Source: a virus (Duplodnaviria; Heunggongvirae; Uroviricota; Caudoviricetes). Taken from it: a DNA stretch of 5,852 nucleotides. This document shows positions 1 to 5,852 of the stretch, piece after piece (the stretch's first letter is position 1; the number at the start of each line of letters is the position of its first letter). The notes below the pieces were generated by a model. It had not been told where the DNA came from. It did no database searches and saw only the letters and a list, made by a program, of their open reading frames with translations. The stretch lies in the IMG/VR virus record IMGVR_UViG_2698536408_000010. The stretch is one strand, 5' to 3'. A program made the position numbers and the translations under genes.

Positions 1-2
1 TC

Positions 3-417
3 CAGTATCCGGATGGTAAGCCGCCGGTATGGGCAAAGTGTACGAAAGGTGTGTATCCGTCTTACTGGGAAGAATGGAAAAAAGTCAGGGAGGTGGTAAA
101 AGTTGCCTGTCCGGAGTGTGGCGGAAAGGGTGAGGTTTCCACCGCCTGTAAGGATTGCCGTGGGCGTGGTGTCGCCATTCATCGTGAAGAGTCGGTAAAA
201 CGTGGTATGCCTGTTATCAGAGACTGCCAGCGTTGTGGTGGTCGTGGCTATGAAAGACTACCATCAACGGAGGCATTTAATGCTATATGCGAGGTGACAA
301 ACCAGATAACACGCGCGTCATGGGAAAAAACAGTTAAGAAATTCTATGATGCGCTGGTGACTCGGTTTGATATTGAAGAAGCATGGGCTGAGCGGCAGTT
401 AAAAAAGGTAACTAGGT
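3..417 (+). CDS. Cys-rich zinc-finger protein with three CxxCxGxG (DnaJ-type) motifs; partial (open at window start, 3' end lost in N run); positional candidate for lambdoid late antiterminator Q
   Basis: The frame is open from nt 3 with no upstream stop, so the ORF is 5'-truncated. Translation contains ACPECGGKG, CKDCRGRG and CQRCGGRG. It is followed by an intrinsic terminator, then a methyltransferase and a tRNA-Ile/tRNA-Arg cluster, as downstream of Q in Stx-type phages. The tail after the N run (GRFMPDVRR...) reads through the terminator and is not counted. Confidence 0.5.
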
Positions 418-459
418 NNNNNNNNNNNNNNNNNNNNNNNNNNNNNNNNNNNNNNNNNN
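418..459. other. Assembly gap or masked bases (42 N)
   Basis: Run of n characters; hides the 3' end of the first ORF and any promoter immediately downstream. Confidence 0.95.
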
Positions 460-497
460 ATGGGCGTTTTATGCCTGACGTTAGAAGAGTTTCTACA

Positions 498-520
498 ACC
501 CGCCGCCGAGCGGGTTTTTT
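498..520 (+). terminator. Rho-independent terminator (stem acccgc/gcgggt, 6-nt loop, T6 tract)
   Basis: Perfect 6-bp GC-rich stem 498-503/510-515 followed by tttttt (515-520). Confidence 0.7.
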
Positions 521-640
521 ATGACTGAAATCGCGTCAGTACAGTAAACGCGCTGGTGGCGGTGAATACCTGTCTTTCAGCTTGCTGGCTTTTTCGACAA
601 GAGTTATTGGTGTGTCACGTTAACCGGAAAAGGAAAAGAC

Positions 641-838
641 ATGCTAAAACAGCAGGATATGACAGAAACCGCCAGAGTGGTGTTTAATGAATTAAGCGTT
701 ACCGAACCGGCGACAGTCGGGGAGATAGCGCAGAATACTTACCTTTCACGCGAACGCTGCCAGTTAATACTGACCCAGCTGGTTATGGCGGGTCTGGCAG
801 ACTATCAGTTCGGTTGTTACAGACGCCTTCCGCAGTGA
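641..838 (+). CDS. Small (65 aa) hypothetical protein with predicted helix-turn-helix-like segment
   Basis: ATG at 641 preceded by aaggaaaag (SD-like) 6 nt upstream; segment ATVGEIAQNTYLSRERCQLILTQLVMAGL resembles an HTH/winged-helix; stop codon lies inside a terminator hairpin. Confidence 0.6.
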   Translation: MLKQQDMTETARVVFNELSVTEPATVGEIAQNTYLSRERCQLILTQLVMAGLADYQFGCYRRLPQ

Positions 839-848
839 AGGCTTTTTT
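825..848 (+). terminator. Rho-independent terminator overlapping the stop codon of the 65-aa ORF
   Basis: Stem gccttc (825-830) / gaaggc (837-842), loop cgcagt, followed by tttttt (843-848). Confidence 0.65.
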
Positions 849-865
849 ATTTGTGGTAAATGGGC

Positions 866-896
866 GGCTGGTGGGTGTTAGGGGCACCCACCAGCC
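866..896 (+). other. Perfect 12-bp GC-rich stem-loop without U tract
   Basis: ggctggtgggtg (866-877) pairs with cacccaccagcc (885-896), 7-nt loop ttagggg; no T run on either strand. Confidence 0.5.
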
Positions 897-988
897 ATCT
901 GCTCATGCGTTGGGTTCACAAGCAAACCTCAGGCCCACTGCTTTGCGCAAAAGCAGAATGAGCCTATCAGAGACAGGCTTAATGATCC

Positions 989-2047
989 ATGCTTAATACT
1001 GTAAAAATATCCAGTTGTGAGTTAATCAACGCCGACTGCCTGGAATTTATCCGGTCGTTACCCGAAAATTCTGTTGACCTGATAGTCACGGACCCGCCGT
1101 ACTTTAAAGTGAAGCCTGAGGGCTGGGATAACCAGTGGAAGGGCGACGATGATTACCTGAAGTGGCTGGACCAGTGTCTGGCGCAGTTCTGGCGGGTGCT
1201 GAAACCTGCCGGAAGTCTTTACCTGTTCTGTGGTCATCGCCTGGCATCTGATATCGAAATCATGATGCGTGAACGCTTCAGTGTGCTGAACCATATTATC
1301 TGGGCGAAGCCGTCCGGACGCTGGAACGGATGCAACAAGGAAAGCCTGCGGGCGTATTTCCCCGCCACAGAGCGCATTCTGTTCGCGGAACATTATCAGG
1401 GGCCGTATCGTCCGAAAGATGCCGGGTATGCGGCGAAGGGCAGTGCACTGAAACAGCATGTGATGGCCCCGCTGATTTCTTACTTTCGTGATGCGCGAGC
1501 TGCCCTGGGGATAACGGCAAAACAGATTGCAGATGCCACAGGAAAGAAAAACATGGTGTCGCACTGGTTCAGTGCCGGTCAGTGGCAGTTGCCGAATGAA
1601 AGCGATTATCTGAAATTACAGGCGCTGTTTGCCCGGGTGGCAGAAGAGAAGCATCGGCGTGGTGAACTGGAAAAGCTCCACCACCAGCTGGTGGATACGT
1701 ATACCTCACTGAACCGGCAGTATGCGGAGCTGCTGAGTGAATATAAACATCTGCGGCGGTATTTTGGCGTGACGGTGCAGGTGCCGTATACCGATGTGTG
1801 GACGCATAAACCGGTGCAGTTCTATCCCGGGAAACATCCGTGCGAAAAACCGGCAGAAATGCTGCAGCAGATAATCAGCGCTAGCAGTCGTCCGGGTGAC
1901 CTGATTGCAGATTTTTTCATGGGGTTGGGTTCGACAGTGAAAGCGGCACTGGCGCTCGGGCGTCGTGCAATTGGCGTTGAGCTGGAGACTGAACGTTTTG
2001 AGCAGACGGTTCGGGAAGTACAGGATTTAGTCAGCCAGAACGGATGA
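989..2047 (+). CDS. Beta-class (motif IV before motif I) N6-adenine DNA methyltransferase, CcrM/HinfI-like, apparently orphan
   Basis: DPPY motif at aa 35-38 (nt 1091-1102) after NADCLEF...LPENSVDLIVTDPPY; C-terminal HPCEKPAEMLQQIISASSRPGDLIADFFMGLGST (HPxxKP plus FxGxG AdoMet motif I). 352-aa ORF. Start codon uncertain (weak SD before ATG 989). No restriction endonuclease gene nearby. Confidence 0.85.
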   Translation: MLNTVKISSCELINADCLEFIRSLPENSVDLIVTDPPYFKVKPEGWDNQWKGDDDYLKWLDQCLAQFWRVLKPAGSLYLFCGHRLASDIEIMMRERFSVLNHIIWAKPSGRWNGCNKESLRAYFPATERILFAEHYQGPYRPKDAGYAAKGSALKQHVMAPLISYFRDARAALGITAKQIADATGKKNMVSHWFSAGQWQLPNESDYLKLQALFARVAEEKHRRGELEKLHHQLVDTYTSLNRQYAELLSEYKHLRRYFGVTVQVPYTDVWTHKPVQFYPGKHPCEKPAEMLQQIISASSRPGDLIADFFMGLGSTVKAALALGRRAIGVELETERFEQTVREVQDLVSQNG

Positions 2048-2087
2048 TATTGAAGAATTAATTACGCGTCGTTATTATGCGGCTCCC

Positions 2088-2163
2088 GGCCCTTTAGCTC
2101 AGTGGTGAGAGCGAGCGACTCATAATCGCCAGGTCGCTGGTTCAAATCCAGCAAGGGCCACCA
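2088..2163 (+). tRNA. ileZ: tRNA-Ile2 (anticodon CAU, lysidine type; ileX/ileZ-like), 76 nt with encoded CCA
   Basis: Cloverleaf: acceptor GGCCCTT/AAGGGCC, D-arm GCTC..GAGC, anticodon loop CTCATAA, T-loop TTCAAAT, 3' ACCA. Close to E. coli ileX as recalled from memory. Met versus Ile2 cannot be distinguished from the anticodon alone. Confidence 0.85.
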
Positions 2164-2263
2164 TCACAAACCGCCATTAGCTTATCAGGAAGAGCAGACG
2201 ACACGATAACAGGGTTGTTGGTGCGGGGGCGGGTCCCCGATGGCGGTCCATTATCGGTATTCA

Positions 2264-2340
2264 GCGTTGTTAGCTCAGCCGGACAGAGCAATTGCCTTCT
2301 AAGCAATCGGTCACTGGTTCGAATCCAGTACAACGCGCCA
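2264..2340 (+). tRNA. tRNA-Arg (anticodon UCU, reads AGA/AGG), 77 nt with encoded CCA
   Basis: Acceptor GCGTTGT/ACAACGC, D-arm GCTC..GAGC, anticodon stem ATTGC/GCAAT with loop CTTCTAA, T-loop TTCGAAT, discriminator G then CCA. Confidence 0.88.
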
Positions 2341-2354
2341 CACTTATTTTCCCT

Positions 2355-2380
2355 GGCTCGCTTTTGCGGGCCTTTTTTTT
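2355..2380 (+). terminator. Rho-independent terminator after the tRNA pair
   Basis: Stem ggctcgc/gcgggcc (one G-U), tttt loop, followed by T8 (2373-2380). Confidence 0.7.
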
Positions 2381-2598
2381 AAATGTCTCACAATTCAGAC
2401 GGTTGACAGTTGTCTGTTTTGCGGGGAGTTTGTTAAAAGAAACTGGCATGGTGAATCCCCCTGTGCGGAGGGGCAATCAGCGAGTAGGTATATGGGATAA
2501 TCGCGGATTCAGGTGCTGGTACTGAATTCACCGGGAGGCACCCGGCATCATGCAATGGCACATAGCGCCACTCTCCAGCCCTCTCCGGAGGGGCTTTT
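2376..2598 (+). repeat. R1: ~220-bp structured noncoding module, copy 1 (near-identical to 4836-5060)
   Basis: Shares about 215 bp with copy 2, with about 5 differences. Contains TTGACA (2403-2408), several short GC stems (cccct..agggg, ccggg..cccgg) and a terminal hairpin ccctc/gaggg followed by tttt (2579-2598). Small ORFs inside do not keep frame between copies. Confidence 0.75.
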
Positions 2599-2827
2599 CT
2601 GTGCCGGATACATCACAGTTTCTGGAACCTTAGGTACTACAGTATCAGTCAGGGTGCTATATTTTCAGATGTGATGAAAGCCTGTCAGCAGGCAGGGCGT
2701 ATCGGAAATGACCCAGTAGAGAAAACGTTGACTCAGATACCGGTGCTGAGTTACCGGGAAACCGGCATCACATGACCGCTATCCTGAGGTGTACTGGCAA
2801 TAGCGGACACTACCATTTGTTCTTTTT

Positions 2828-3646
2828 TTAAGCAGCCATCTGATGATATTTTTCCCTGAAGGCTGCCGGGGAGATATTCCCCAGACGAGAGTGACGACGC
2901 TGACGATTGTAGAAAATCTCAATGTATTCCCGTATTACTGAGATGGCTTCATCCCGGTTATTAAAACGATAGTGGCTCAGGCTCTCATTTTTCAGCGTTC
3001 CCCAGAAGCTTTCCATCGGAGCGTTGTCGTAACAGTTACCTTTACGCGACATTGATGTTTTCAGACCAGACTGCTCCTGTATGACCCGGTAATCGTATGC
3101 GCAGTACTGTGAACCTCGATCAGAGTGGTGGATTAGCCCGGCAGGTGGGCGCTGGCTCCTGAGCGCCATAAACAGGGCTTTACCTGTCAGCTCTTTTGTC
3201 ATGCGCTCTCCCATGGCGTAGCCGACAATTTCGCACGTATAAACATCTTTGATGCCAGCGAGGTACAACCATCCCTCCTGTGTGGCAACATACGTCAGGT
3301 CCGCCACCCAGACCTGATTTGGTGCTGTAGGAGCGAACGTCTGGTTCAGCAGATTTGGCGCAACTGGCAGATTGTGGTTCGAGTTCGTAGTCGCTCTGAA
3401 CTTGCGTTTCTGCTTACAGCGTAGCCTTAGCTCCTTACGAAGACGTGCCAGTCGGTCACGACCAACGATGATGCCATTCTCTGCCAGCTCCGTCTGGAGC
3501 CGCCGGGTTCCATATGTTTCGCGAGTGCGGATATGTGCCACCTTAATCTCCAGTTTTAGCCGCTCATCACTTTGTTTTCTGTCTGAGGGTTCATGCTGTA
3601 CCCAGTTGTAATAACCGCTCCTGGATACACCAAATACCTGACACAT
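2828..3646 (-). CDS. IS3-family transposase OrfB (DDE integrase catalytic domain); in vivo made as OrfAB by -1 frameshift
   Basis: 272-aa ORF with HHSDRGSQY, MSRKGNCYDNAPMESFW and YNRQRRHSRLGNISP motifs typical of IS3-family OrfB. The frame stays open upstream to the slippery site near 3727-3733. Confidence 0.9.
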   Translation of the reverse strand: MCQVFGVSRSGYYNWVQHEPSDRKQSDERLKLEIKVAHIRTRETYGTRRLQTELAENGIIVGRDRLARLRKELRLRCKQKRKFRATTNSNHNLPVAPNLLNQTFAPTAPNQVWVADLTYVATQEGWLYLAGIKDVYTCEIVGYAMGERMTKELTGKALFMALRSQRPPAGLIHHSDRGSQYCAYDYRVIQEQSGLKTSMSRKGNCYDNAPMESFWGTLKNESLSHYRFNNRDEAISVIREYIEIFYNRQRRHSRLGNISPAAFREKYHQMAA

Positions 3647-3681
3647 CGCTTCAATGGGAAATTGTTGTCGCCATTGTTCGA

Positions 3682-3912
3682 TTAACGCGTATTTTTCAGC
3701 GACTCCTGTGCAAAATACGCTGTTGCTTTTTTTAATATATCTCGCTCAAGGCGAGCTTCATTTAACGCCTTACGCAGTTGCAGAATTTCAGATTCCAGTT
3801 CAGCCACCGTGCGGGAACCAGGAGTACCGAGCCCTTTTCTGGCGGCGGTAACCCATTGTCCTAAAGTGCCTTCAGGAAGAGATAATCGGGAAGCGCCTTC
3901 ACTGATCGAAAG
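3682..3912 (-). CDS. IS3-family transposase OrfA (HTH/leucine-zipper part), N-terminus lost in N run
   Basis: Translation ...TVAELESEILQLRKALNEARLERDILKKATAYFAQESLKNTR resembles IS911-type OrfA C-terminus. The tracked ORF extends through the Ns into antisense tRNA sequence, which is artefactual. Confidence 0.75.
   Translation of the reverse strand, partial: LSISEGASRLSLPEGTLGQWVTAARKGLGTPGSRTVAELESEILQLRKALNEARLERDILKKATAYFAQESLKNTR
3727..3733 (-). other. Programmed -1 ribosomal frameshift heptamer A_AAA_AAA linking OrfA and OrfB
   Basis: Seven T on + strand (seven A on coding strand) in the OrfA frame within ...DILKKATAYF; shifting -1 here joins onto ...LIEQWRQQFPIEAMCQVFGVSRSGYYNW. Confidence 0.6.
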
Positions 3913-3923
3913 NNNNNNNNNNN
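3913..3923. other. Assembly gap or masked bases (11 N)
   Basis: Run of n; IS sequence on one side, tRNA-flanking sequence on the other, so true adjacency is unknown. Confidence 0.95.
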
Positions 3924-3929
3924 GCTCCC

Positions 3930-4005
3930 GGCCCTTTAGCTCAGTGGTGAGAGCGAGCGACTCATAATCGCCAGGTCGCTGGTTCAAATCCAGCAAGGGC
4001 CACCA
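3930..4005 (+). tRNA. ileZ: tRNA-Ile2 (CAU), second copy, identical to 2088-2163
   Basis: Same 76-nt sequence as copy 1, including 6 nt of upstream flank (gctccc). Confidence 0.85.
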
Positions 4006-4105
4006 TCACAAACCGCCATTAGCTTATCAGGAAGAGCAGACGACACGATAACAGGGTTGTTGGTGCGGGGGCGGGTCCCCGATGGCGGTCCATTATCGGT
4101 ATTCA

Positions 4106-4182
4106 GCGTTGTTAGCTCAGCCGGACAGAGCAATTGCCTTCTAAGCAATCGGTCACTGGTTCGAATCCAGTACAGCGCGCCA
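4106..4182 (+). tRNA. tRNA-Arg (UCU), second copy, one substitution in acceptor stem
   Basis: Identical to 2264-2340 except A to G at 4175 (versus 2333), making a U4-G69 wobble; downstream flank differs and has no terminator. Confidence 0.85.
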
Positions 4183-4292
4183 TATTCATTCTTCCAGATT
4201 CCTTCCGGCAGAGCCTTATACTGAAATATACCTGGCTCAGGATATTGTTGAAAATATTTTATGTTTGTCAAAAATAAAAGTTCTGTTAAGTA

Positions 4293-4646
4293 TTGATTGA
4301 GTGTTTGTTATACGGTCTAATGGTTTTTTCAGCATTAAATATTTATCATTCATATGGTGTGGGTAGAGTGAATATTGATGAGGCGTCGGGGTGTTTCATC
4401 CTTAGGCAGCGTATTGATATAGTCAATGCAGCACGAGCAAAGGCCTTCAGCCGTTTGACAGTTTTGTTCTGTACTCCTGATCGTCTTTCGGGAAGAGACG
4501 TTATTATTCTGAATAGTGATGCTATACAGAGGGTTTGCGATGAGTTCATGGTTGCTAATTCAGAATTATTTGCTCTTGTTCAGGAGTACAACAGAATAGC
4601 CAGGACCTGTGGTATGGATGAACTTCGGATTACTCATCTGGGGTAG
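4293..4646 (+). CDS. Hypothetical protein (up to 117 aa), AT-rich cargo gene rich in AGA/AGG/ATA codons
   Basis: A 354-nt open frame in AT-rich DNA is unlikely by chance. 6 of 11 Arg codons are AGA/AGG and 3 Ile codons are ATA. Start is uncertain (TTG 4293, ATG 4320 or GTG 4367) and no clear SD is present. No family recognised. Confidence 0.45.
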   Translation: MIECLLYGLMVFSALNIYHSYGVGRVNIDEASGCFILRQRIDIVNAARAKAFSRLTVLFCTPDRLSGRDVIILNSDAIQRVCDEFMVANSELFALVQEYNRIARTCGMDELRITHLG

Positions 4647-4726
4647 ATACATATCTGGATTATCACCTGTTACGGTAAAAAGTGATTGCTTACTGTTTTT
4701 GTGAATGGCATTGCAGCAGCCGGATA

Positions 4727-4813
4727 ATGTCAGTGCTGGCTGACGGTGTGCTGGTGGCGGGTGTGGTGGTTGTTGCTTTCCCGTTGCTGAAAAAGAAAAC
4801 GCCAGACTGTTAG
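4727..4813 (+). CDS. Possible small hydrophobic peptide (28 aa, MSVLADGVLVAGVVVVAFPLLKKKTPDC)
   Basis: ATG-initiated ORF with a single predicted TM-like segment and KKK tail; GC-rich island within AT-rich DNA; weak SD (gga 3-5 nt upstream). Could also be a gene remnant. Confidence 0.25.
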   Translation: MSVLADGVLVAGVVVVAFPLLKKKTPDC

Positions 4814-4835
4814 CCGGGTATCAGTTAGCGGGAGA

Positions 4836-5060
4836 AATTTTTAAATACTTCACAATTCAGGCGGTTGACTGTTGTCTGGTTTGCGGGGAGTTTGTTAAAA
4901 GAAACTGGCATGGTGAATCCCCCTGTGCGGAGGGGCAATCAGCGAGTAGGTATATGGGATAATCGCGGATTCAGGTGCTGGTACTGAATTCACCGGGAGG
5001 CACCCGGCACCATGCAATGGCACATAGCGCCACTCTCCAGCCCCTCTCCGGAGGGGCTGT
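4836..5060 (+). repeat. R2: ~220-bp structured noncoding module, copy 2 (near-identical to 2376-2598)
   Basis: Same module as R1 with TTGACT in place of TTGACA and one extra C in the terminal hairpin (7-bp stem gcccctc/gaggggc, 5040-5057). Confidence 0.75.
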
Positions 5061-5076
5061 TTATATTGATTTTGTC
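5040..5076 (+). terminator. Terminator-like hairpin at the end of R2
   Basis: 7-bp GC stem with tccg loop followed by tgtttatattgattttg (T-rich but interrupted). Confidence 0.5.
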
Positions 5077-5090
5077 AGATGTGAGTAAAC

Positions 5091-5124
5091 TCCTTATGGA
5101 CTTTGTTGTTTTAGTCCATAAGGA
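5091..5124. other. Perfect 12-bp inverted repeat spanning the stop codon of the minus-strand 111-aa ORF
   Basis: tccttatggact (5091-5102) pairs with agtccataagga (5113-5124), 10-nt loop. It lies between the convergent R2 module and the minus-strand ORF. Confidence 0.5.
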
Positions 5125-5429
5125 CATATTTGCAGAGTGCAACGGTTATTAAAGCATTCATTCAATACGTTATCTGTATTTGTAGGGCATTCCTGGCTAT
5201 TTTTGATTGAATTCCAGAATGTTTTATTGAATGGTACTACGTTGTAAATGGTTACAGGTAGCACTTTGTTATTGAGCATGATGCCTGTGTGAGTCAGTGT
5301 AAATATACTTTCAGGAGGTAAGAAAGCATCCGATTGATACCAGATTATTAATTTTATTTTACTCCATATGACTGAAAAAGATATTCCGCATGATGGCTGG
5401 ATAACTGTATCAATCACAATCCACTTCAT
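5094..5429 (-). CDS. Hypothetical Cys-containing protein (111 aa), AT-rich cargo gene
   Basis: ATG at 5429 (minus) preceded by aaggaaa 5 nt upstream (strong SD). At least six ATA Ile codons. C-terminal region has 5 Cys ([26 protein letters not shown]). No family recognised. Confidence 0.6.
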
Positions 5430-5689
5430 TTAGTTTCCTTGTTTATGCCTTGCTGGTGATGTTCTGAAAAGTATAAATGATATTTTTGAATGTAAACCAT
5501 AGAGCAGAATTATTTTTCTGATGTTGTTTATTGTTTATTTAAATGCAGGGTGGTTTATATCTCGTCTTGTAGTTTATCCATGCATATCTGCTTGATAATC
5601 AGGTTTTTATTTAAGGTATGGTTTTGTGTTTTTTCTGTATTACATGTCAGGTATTTTAAAGAATTATTTTTCAGATGGTGGAAAGAACC

Positions 5690-5816
5690 ATGGCATTTAA
5701 ACACTATGATGTTGTCAGGGCGGCGCCGCCGTCAGATCTTGCGGAAAAGCTGACACATAAACTGAAAGAGGGCTGGCAGCCGTTTGGTAGTCCGGTGGCC
5801 ATAACCCCTTATACCC
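5690..5816 (+). CDS. N-terminal 42 codons of a small lambdoid-prophage protein (MAFKHYDVVRAAPPSDLAEKL..., possibly DUF1737-like), interrupted by IS end
   Basis: ATG 5690 with ggtggaaag SD-like sequence 6 nt upstream. The frame runs without a stop into the IS terminal sequence starting at 5817. The family assignment is from memory and tentative. Confidence 0.55.
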
Positions 5817-5852
5817 TGAGGTGTACTGGCAATAGCGGACACTACCATTTGT
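5817..5852 (-). mobile_element. IS3-family terminal end (second copy of the end seen at 2785-2820), continues beyond window
   Basis: 36 nt identical to 2785-2820 (tgaggtgtactggcaatagcggacactaccatttgt), same orientation. Confidence 0.8.

Follow-up and report, generated by a model that had tools for sequence, protein, structure and literature searches.

Phage tRNAs are usually seen as decoders of rare codons, in the present case AUA and AGA (together with CGA and CGG, if argN is present) of late and cargo genes. The ileZ–argN–argO cluster of Shiga toxin (Stx)-converting and other lambdoid phages, carried for example by Stx2a_1447 and 933W, consists of such genes. In Stx2a_1447 (AP012536.1), it belongs to the series open reading frame ORF65, DNA methylase, ileZ, argN, argO, terminator, stx2AB, core of the small RNA (sRNA) STnc100 and next ORF, and the order rusA, Q, methylase, tRNA genes, stxAB, yjhS and lysis genes has been drawn in an earlier publication (PMC3491183). 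STnc100 itself is a known family of prophage sRNAs (bioRxiv 10.64898/2026.05.13.724894). Here, we analysed a stretch of 5852 nt (the window) of the IMG/VR caudoviricete record IMGVR_UViG_2698536408_000010, in which two nearly identical modules, each with a tRNA-Ile2 and a tRNA-Arg gene, stand in different surroundings. The window is very probably a draft-assembly scaffold, from Shigella sonnei or a strain indistinguishable from it, that runs through sequence common to two lambdoid (Stx-phage-like) prophage remnants.

Like the Stx-phage cluster, the tRNA genes of the window follow Q, the late promoter PR', the terminator tR' and a DNA methylase gene, and precede a cargo site, STnc100, nanS-p and the holin gene; as in the Stx2a phages, a terminator is also found after argO. 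Unlike that cluster, both copies in the window lack an intact argN, of which a decayed tRNA-like remnant is present, and there is no stxAB between argO and STnc100. Moreover, one of the two loci described below (locus 2) has no methylase gene, its tRNA genes start 31 nt after tR', and its cargo is different (ORF117, DUF3927 and an IraM-like gene). A closer likeness is offered by the resident prophage remnants of S. sonnei (53G, HE616528.1; CP104423.1), to which the window is 99.9–100% identical outside the spacer between its tRNA genes; however, complete S. sonnei genomes keep the two loci separate, have three tRNA genes at locus 1, and continue from the insertion sequence IS600 into the region upstream of nanS-p. 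Finally, the window resembles the products of repeat-induced mis-scaffolding and bubble collapse, in which pieces end at inter-copy variants, shared nodes are used twice and non-native alleles appear. Assembly difficulty arising from similar lambdoid prophages has been reported for O157:H7 (PMC4587872).

The pieces of the window match two separate loci

Two runs of Ns split the window into segments A (1–417), B (460–3912) and C (3924–5852). Exact-protein look-ups with the methylase of segment B and the IraM-like gene of segment C led to the same complete S. sonnei chromosomes, on which the two genes lie in different places. In CP104423.1, the methylase region (1857199–1874257, ~1.866 Mb; locus 1) and the IraM-like region (2527987–2544322, ~2.536 Mb; locus 2) are ~0.67 Mb apart, the genes are likewise separate in 53G, and across complete genomes the distance between the loci amounts to ~0.67–0.78 Mb. 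The three segments were compared by BLAST with 20 loci of complete S. sonnei genomes, ten of them locus-1 copies. Segment C, with the tRNA module that it contains (copy 2), is 100% identical to locus 2 (L014 and L019), and segment A matches locus 2 at 100% (L013–L020) and locus 1 at 99.5%. Segment B is 99.2% identical to locus 1, and the flanks of its tRNA module (copy 1) match S. sonnei locus 1 at 100%. The pieces of the window thus originate from two loci, and the idea of the preliminary description that they are fragments of two lambdoid prophages of one genome is borne out by the complete chromosomes, which show both.

Locus 1 is arranged as Q, PR', tR', ORF65, DNA methylase, ileZ, argN, argO, terminator, STnc100, IS600, nanS-p and holin, and locus 2 as Q, PR', tR', 31 nt, ileZ, decayed argN, argO, ORF117, DUF3927, STnc100, iraM, a truncated DUF1737 gene and IS600. 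At locus 2, segments A and C are 131 bp apart, and this interval is made up of the PR' promoter, the tR' leader (which also opens segment B) and the unique 31-nt stretch. The Q genes of the two loci differ at their 3' ends, where an 8-nt direct duplication (AACTAGGT/AACAAGGT) is present at locus 1 and absent from locus 2 (window 410–417 versus 7419–7434 of the locus-1 record L004). The duplication stops the locus-1 protein at 273 aa, while the locus-2 Q extends to 284 aa, its 11 additional codons reading across PR'.

Within a collection of complete E. coli genomes, Shigella not included, no genome covers at least 80% of the window. The best relatives there hold 76% of it in one 3.98-kb locus that has just one tRNA module, in a locus-2-like order preceded by a methylase gene and at ~97% identity.

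Copy 1 of the tRNA module combines locus-1 flanks with a locus-2 spacer

Direct comparison of 2082–2340 with 3924–4182 (259 nt) yielded a single difference, A at 2333 versus G at 4175, and hence 99.6% identity, just as the preliminary description had stated. That description had also correctly placed copy 1 after a methyltransferase gene and before a terminator, a repeat (R1) and an insertion sequence, and copy 2 immediately after the 11-N run and before cargo, a second repeat (R2) and further cargo. Without gaps, the repeat extends to 272 nt at 98% identity (2082–2353/3924–4195), with divergence from 2341, 2343 and 2345 onwards; similarity at the level of 99.6% over 259 nt lies far outside what chance would produce.

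Each module encodes a tRNA with the anticodon CAT and a tRNA-Arg(TCT) (ARAGORN; Rfam tRNA scores of 68–72.5 bits). The former is identical over 76/76 nt to the annotated ileZ (tRNA-Ile) of the Stx2a phage AP012536.1 and to the tRNA-Ile annotated by PGAP in the E. coli relative L001, so the naming as tRNA-Ile2 and tRNA-Arg proposed earlier agrees with both the PGAP and the GenBank annotation. The tRNA-Arg(UCU), the last gene of the cluster, matches the annotated argO of AP012536.1 at 77/77 positions in copy 1 and 76/77 in copy 2, and the difference between the copies falls on position 69 in the acceptor stem, where U4–A69 is replaced by U4–G69 and the pair is preserved. The acceptor stem of the CAU tRNA contains C4–G69 and C5–G68, which are TilS determinants. 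In a cluster of this type, C34 of the CAU tRNA would be modified to lysidine for the reading of AUA, and the tRNAs would be expressed upon induction. Because literature searches of open-access papers did not find ileZ, argN or argO, the gene names used here rest on GenBank annotation. In the E. coli relative, the S. sonnei loci and the Stx2a phage (L001, L003–L022 and L033), the cluster lies in the late operon, 3' of Q, PR' and tR' and 5' of the cargo site and the lysis genes, and its tRNAs are presumably transcribed upon Q-permitted read-through and may serve as rare-codon decoders. The modules are a known phage tRNA cluster in a Q-dependent late transcript, the biology of which is already known.

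An intact argN, i.e. a tRNA-Arg(UCG) gene, was detected neither in 2164–2263 nor in 4006–4105 (ARAGORN; Rfam at E ≤ 0.1). In the remnant found there, the acceptor, D and T stems are retained and the T loop is altered; a hairpin of 7 bp with a loop of 3 nt takes the place of the anticodon arm, so that no anticodon loop is left. Since relatives from E. coli and metagenomes (L001 and L023–L026) have this 80-nt stretch without a single change, the decayed argN is a widespread variant. At the genuine locus 2 (L014), the module has two tRNAs (CAT and TCT), while the genuine locus 1 has three (CAT, TCG and TCT): argN is intact in all ten complete S. sonnei locus-1 copies, and none of them has the decayed spacer. 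When segment B was compared with the locus-1 record L004, all differences were confined to 2169–2263, apart from one substitution in IS600 at position 3498. Copy 1 is, in other words, chimeric, with locus-1 flanks and the locus-2 spacer at 2169–2263. The genuine locus-1 module is 88.7% identical to copy 2 of the window, and its ileZ–argO spacer measures 92 nt, compared with 95 nt at locus 2, flanked in both cases by exact anchors (87 and 69 nt). The near-identity of the two modules thus holds for the letters of the window, while copy 1 is itself suspect, and the similarity is probably artificial.

One explanation is that only the order of the scaffold is artefactual and that copy 1 is real, its locus-1 module having been converted by locus 2 or by an incoming phage with true loss of argN. 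The decayed argN, an argO with A69 and locus-1-type downstream sequence do occur together in independent N-free contigs (L023 and L026), the exact 87-nt and 69-nt anchors around the spacer could support homologous exchange, and lambdoid prophages are known as mosaics (bioRxiv 10.64898/2026.05.13.724894). Nevertheless, we consider such a conversion improbable, given the uniform retention of argN in complete S. sonnei locus-1 copies and the purely S. sonnei flanks of copy 1. Two further non-native allele choices occur in the same scaffold (segment A, 344/362; IS600, 3498), the joins fall exactly at graph branch points, and a single assembly process accounts for all these findings together. Consequently, there is only a small chance that the source strain truly has the two-tRNA form of copy 1.

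Two additional results concern the copy-1 haplotype. A scan of species-representative genomes did not find it, and an ORF across the chimeric junction (2215–2382) has no exact protein on record, which is uninformative, since gene callers rarely call ORFs over tRNA genes. As a separate observation, another S. sonnei-like draft (L029, IMGVR_UViG_2690316200_000011) carries an insert of ~1.34 kb in the T arm of the locus-1 argN (reverse complement of 1869–3208), past which a single N bridges into locus 2. The terminal repeats of this insert (ATAAGCGCTAACTTAAGGGTT...) resemble what we take to be those of IS186.

IS600 and the order of the segments

The insertion sequence at 2785 is IS600, 99.9% identical to annotated copies and lying on the minus strand, with OrfB at 2828–3646 (rve domain) and OrfA (HTH_Tnp_1 domain) cut by the 11-N run. 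The window holds 1128 of its 1264 bp, and the absence of the remaining 136 bp agrees with the earlier estimate that about 100–400 bp of an insertion sequence interrupted within OrfA were missing. At locus 1 of S. sonnei, the same element is a simple 1264-bp insertion with the 3-bp target duplication TCC (L004), and it is polymorphic: seven of the ten complete genomes (L003–L012, around position 9793) have it at the same site and with the same TCC as the window, and the site is intact and empty in 53G (L007 gives an example of an empty site) and two others. What comes after IS600 in these complete genomes is the upstream region of a nanS-p-type esterase gene, and no tRNAs are found there. At position 3498, the window has the allele of other IS600 copies and not that of the locus-1 copy. 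Independently of this, the S. sonnei IS600 copies (L003–L022) are G/A polymorphic at the base that corresponds to window 3923, the last N of the 11-N run; the contig ends 10 nt earlier.

A second IS600 truncates the DUF1737 gene at locus 2 (window 5812–5852). On its far side, no matching 3-bp duplication is found in complete genomes (L013, ~7570–7615), which suggests that the element mediated the deletion or rearrangement of the remainder of that prophage. This bears on the possibility that the order seen in the window is real, with one locus in which a duplication or rearrangement, bounded or mediated by IS600, brought two late regions into tandem and a truncated IS600 up against the second module. 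In its favour, an IS600 of the same orientation stands at the end of both segment B and segment C, the element is abundant in Shigella, whose genomes it rearranges, the copy that ends segment C lacks a matching target duplication in complete genomes, and 42 Ns come near the true lengths of 37 and 45 nt. However, IS600 adjoins a tRNA module at none of the 20 complete-genome loci, and IMG/VR contains no match for IS600 followed within 0–30 nt by the module. The junction would also be non-homologous and yet coincide with the very base at which inter-locus identity starts, segment A with its locus-2 alleles is joined to locus-1 sequence, and three independent rare events would be needed. A genuine tandem or segmental duplication is likewise at odds with a junction that consists of an N run and with an order absent from all of these loci. 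Hence, we regard a real order as highly improbable, and the suggestion that the modules stem from one locus with an IS-bounded duplication found no support.

Segment boundaries coincide with the limits of inter-locus identity

The scaffold reading is further supported by the positions at which the segments begin and end. The window opens (base 1) directly after an inter-locus mismatch, segment A closes (base 417) just before the 8-nt inter-locus indel, segment B opens (base 460) just after a G/T single-nucleotide polymorphism between the loci, and segment C opens (base 3924) where an exact inter-locus match of 87 nt also begins. Boundaries placed on identity limits in this way (1, 417, 460 and 3924) are the signature of a walk through a repeat graph.

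In this scenario, the stretches identical in both loci (the 3' end of Q, the tR' leader, the tRNA genes, STnc100 and IS600) would collapse in a short-read graph, and the scaffold would proceed from A (locus 2) over a gap to B (locus 1) and over another gap to C (locus 2), passing the tRNA node twice. The spacer between the exact anchors would form a bubble, most likely collapsed to the locus-2 branch, and because of this collapse copy 1 would look 99.6% identical to copy 2. We infer this mechanism, bubble collapse and scaffolding across repeats, from the assembled letters. Bulge removal of the SPAdes type would merge branches of nearly equal length regardless of their sequence. We also attempted to derive the k-mer size of the assembler from the 36-nt IS600 stub and the block lengths, but the numbers were inconsistent with one k, and the claim was dropped.

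The lengths of the N runs were considered as well. They could in principle be masks of equal length over contiguous sequence, and not scaffold gaps: some stretches in one sequence collection are indeed masked as Ns, and 42 is near the real length. Nonetheless, locus 1 has 45 nt and locus 2 has 37 nt in the interval covered by the 42-N run, and because 42 fits neither, the N lengths are estimates and not masks. Moreover, after an 11-nt mask, IS600 would have to resume with GAACCG at 3924, where the window has GCTCCC. Same-length masking was therefore rejected, as neither the N lengths nor the bases that follow fit, and it is almost certainly not the explanation.

Other drafts show similar behaviour. 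In three S. sonnei-like IMG/VR drafts (L028, L029 and L032), the same pieces are joined in other orders across single Ns, with switches between the loci at the STnc100, tRNA, Q and IS600 repeats; the region is systematically unreliable in drafts.

Several points weigh against the scaffold reading. The collapse is deduced and was not observed in reads. Five other IMG/VR drafts have the same IS600 junction without this chimera, which is therefore not a systematic artefact. The copy-1 haplotype, i.e. a decayed argN together with the A69 argO and a terminator of locus-1 type, occurs in the non-sonnei contigs L023 and L026, which match the window base for base over 2082–2370, so that a real recombinant or a gene conversion in the source strain is conceivable. 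The scaffold reading also leaves unexplained why the sequence stops 136 bp short of the IS600 end and why exactly 11 Ns follow.

Annotated parts and the apparently empty stx site

The features of the window are listed in Table 1. The exact methyltransferase protein is present in complete S. sonnei genomes. The repeats R1 and R2 of the preliminary description are real and represent two full-length copies of STnc100 (RF02076; gathering score 47; model positions 1–206 covered), one per prophage late region, with cores that are ~97% identical. In AP012536.1, the same STnc100 core is located just downstream of stx2B (L033, position 4775). At locus 1, the argO-proximal terminator is kept, and STnc100 stands directly where stx2AB would be (window 2341–2416 versus L033 3336–3430), and the locus looks like a Stx2a-phage late region with an empty stx site.

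Table 1. Features of the 5852-nt window (positions on the strand presented)
Feature	Position	Strand	Remarks
Q antiterminator gene, 3' part	1–417	+	Pfam Antiterm PF03589, E = 9.5e-32; locus-2 alleles at 344 and 362
42-N gap	418–459	.	Covers late promoter PR' (in relatives TTGATT-17-TAAATT)
Late-transcript start and tR'-like terminator	460–527	+	Stem 497–516, then T run; common to both loci, which diverge afterwards
65-aa phage ORF, phrog_331	641–838	+	Locus 1 only
N6/N4 DNA methyltransferase	989–2047	+	Pfam PF01555, E = 7.9e-42; locus 1 only
tRNA module, copy 1	2082–2340	+	tRNA-Ile2 (CAU, ileZ) 2088–2163; decayed argN 2171–2250; tRNA-Arg (UCU, argO) 2264–2340
Intrinsic terminator 3' of argO	2355–2380	+	In Stx2a phages, the same element separates argO from stx2A
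STnc100-family prophage sRNA, copy R1	2417–2606	+	Rfam RF02076, 123.6 bits
IS600 (IS3 family), 1128 of 1264 bp	2785–3912	-	Target duplication TCC at 2782–2784
11-N gap	3913–3923	.	IS600 interior joined to first base of inter-locus repeat
tRNA module, copy 2 (genuine locus-2 module)	3924–4182	+	tRNA-Ile2 3930–4005; decayed argN 4013–4092; tRNA-Arg (UCU, G69) 4106–4182
117-aa phage ORF, phrog_2873; locus-2 cargo	4293–4646	+	
DUF3927 small membrane protein; locus-2 cargo	4682–4813	+	Pfam PF13064, E = 1.7e-27
STnc100-family prophage sRNA, copy R2	4879–5068	+	Rfam RF02076, 132.4 bits
IraM-like anti-adapter (PmrD fold family); locus-2 cargo	5094–5429	-	PGAP name in L001; precomputed PF11183 match; phrog_4407
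DUF1737 N-terminal fragment, start of nanS-p-type esterase gene, cut by IS600	5690–5816	+	Pfam PF08410, E = 1.6e-15
Another IS600 copy, first 36 nt	5817–5852	-	Orientation as IS600 at 2785; window end

Implications for prophage biology

The feature combines known biology with an assembly artefact. Repeat collapse and scaffolding in drafts of genomes with multiple lambdoid prophages can fake duplications, the loss of a tRNA (here argN) and IS-flanked cargo cassettes, and counts of phage tRNAs, sRNAs or cargo genes taken from such scaffolds would be wrong. It is unlikely that the window instead records a gene conversion from locus 2 to locus 1 that removed a functional argN (UCG) or, less likely still, a true IS600-mediated fusion of late regions. 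If the conversion were true, it would illustrate, on a small scale, how resident prophages exchange sequence, and either event would represent a recent rearrangement among the resident prophage remnants of a clonal pathogen.

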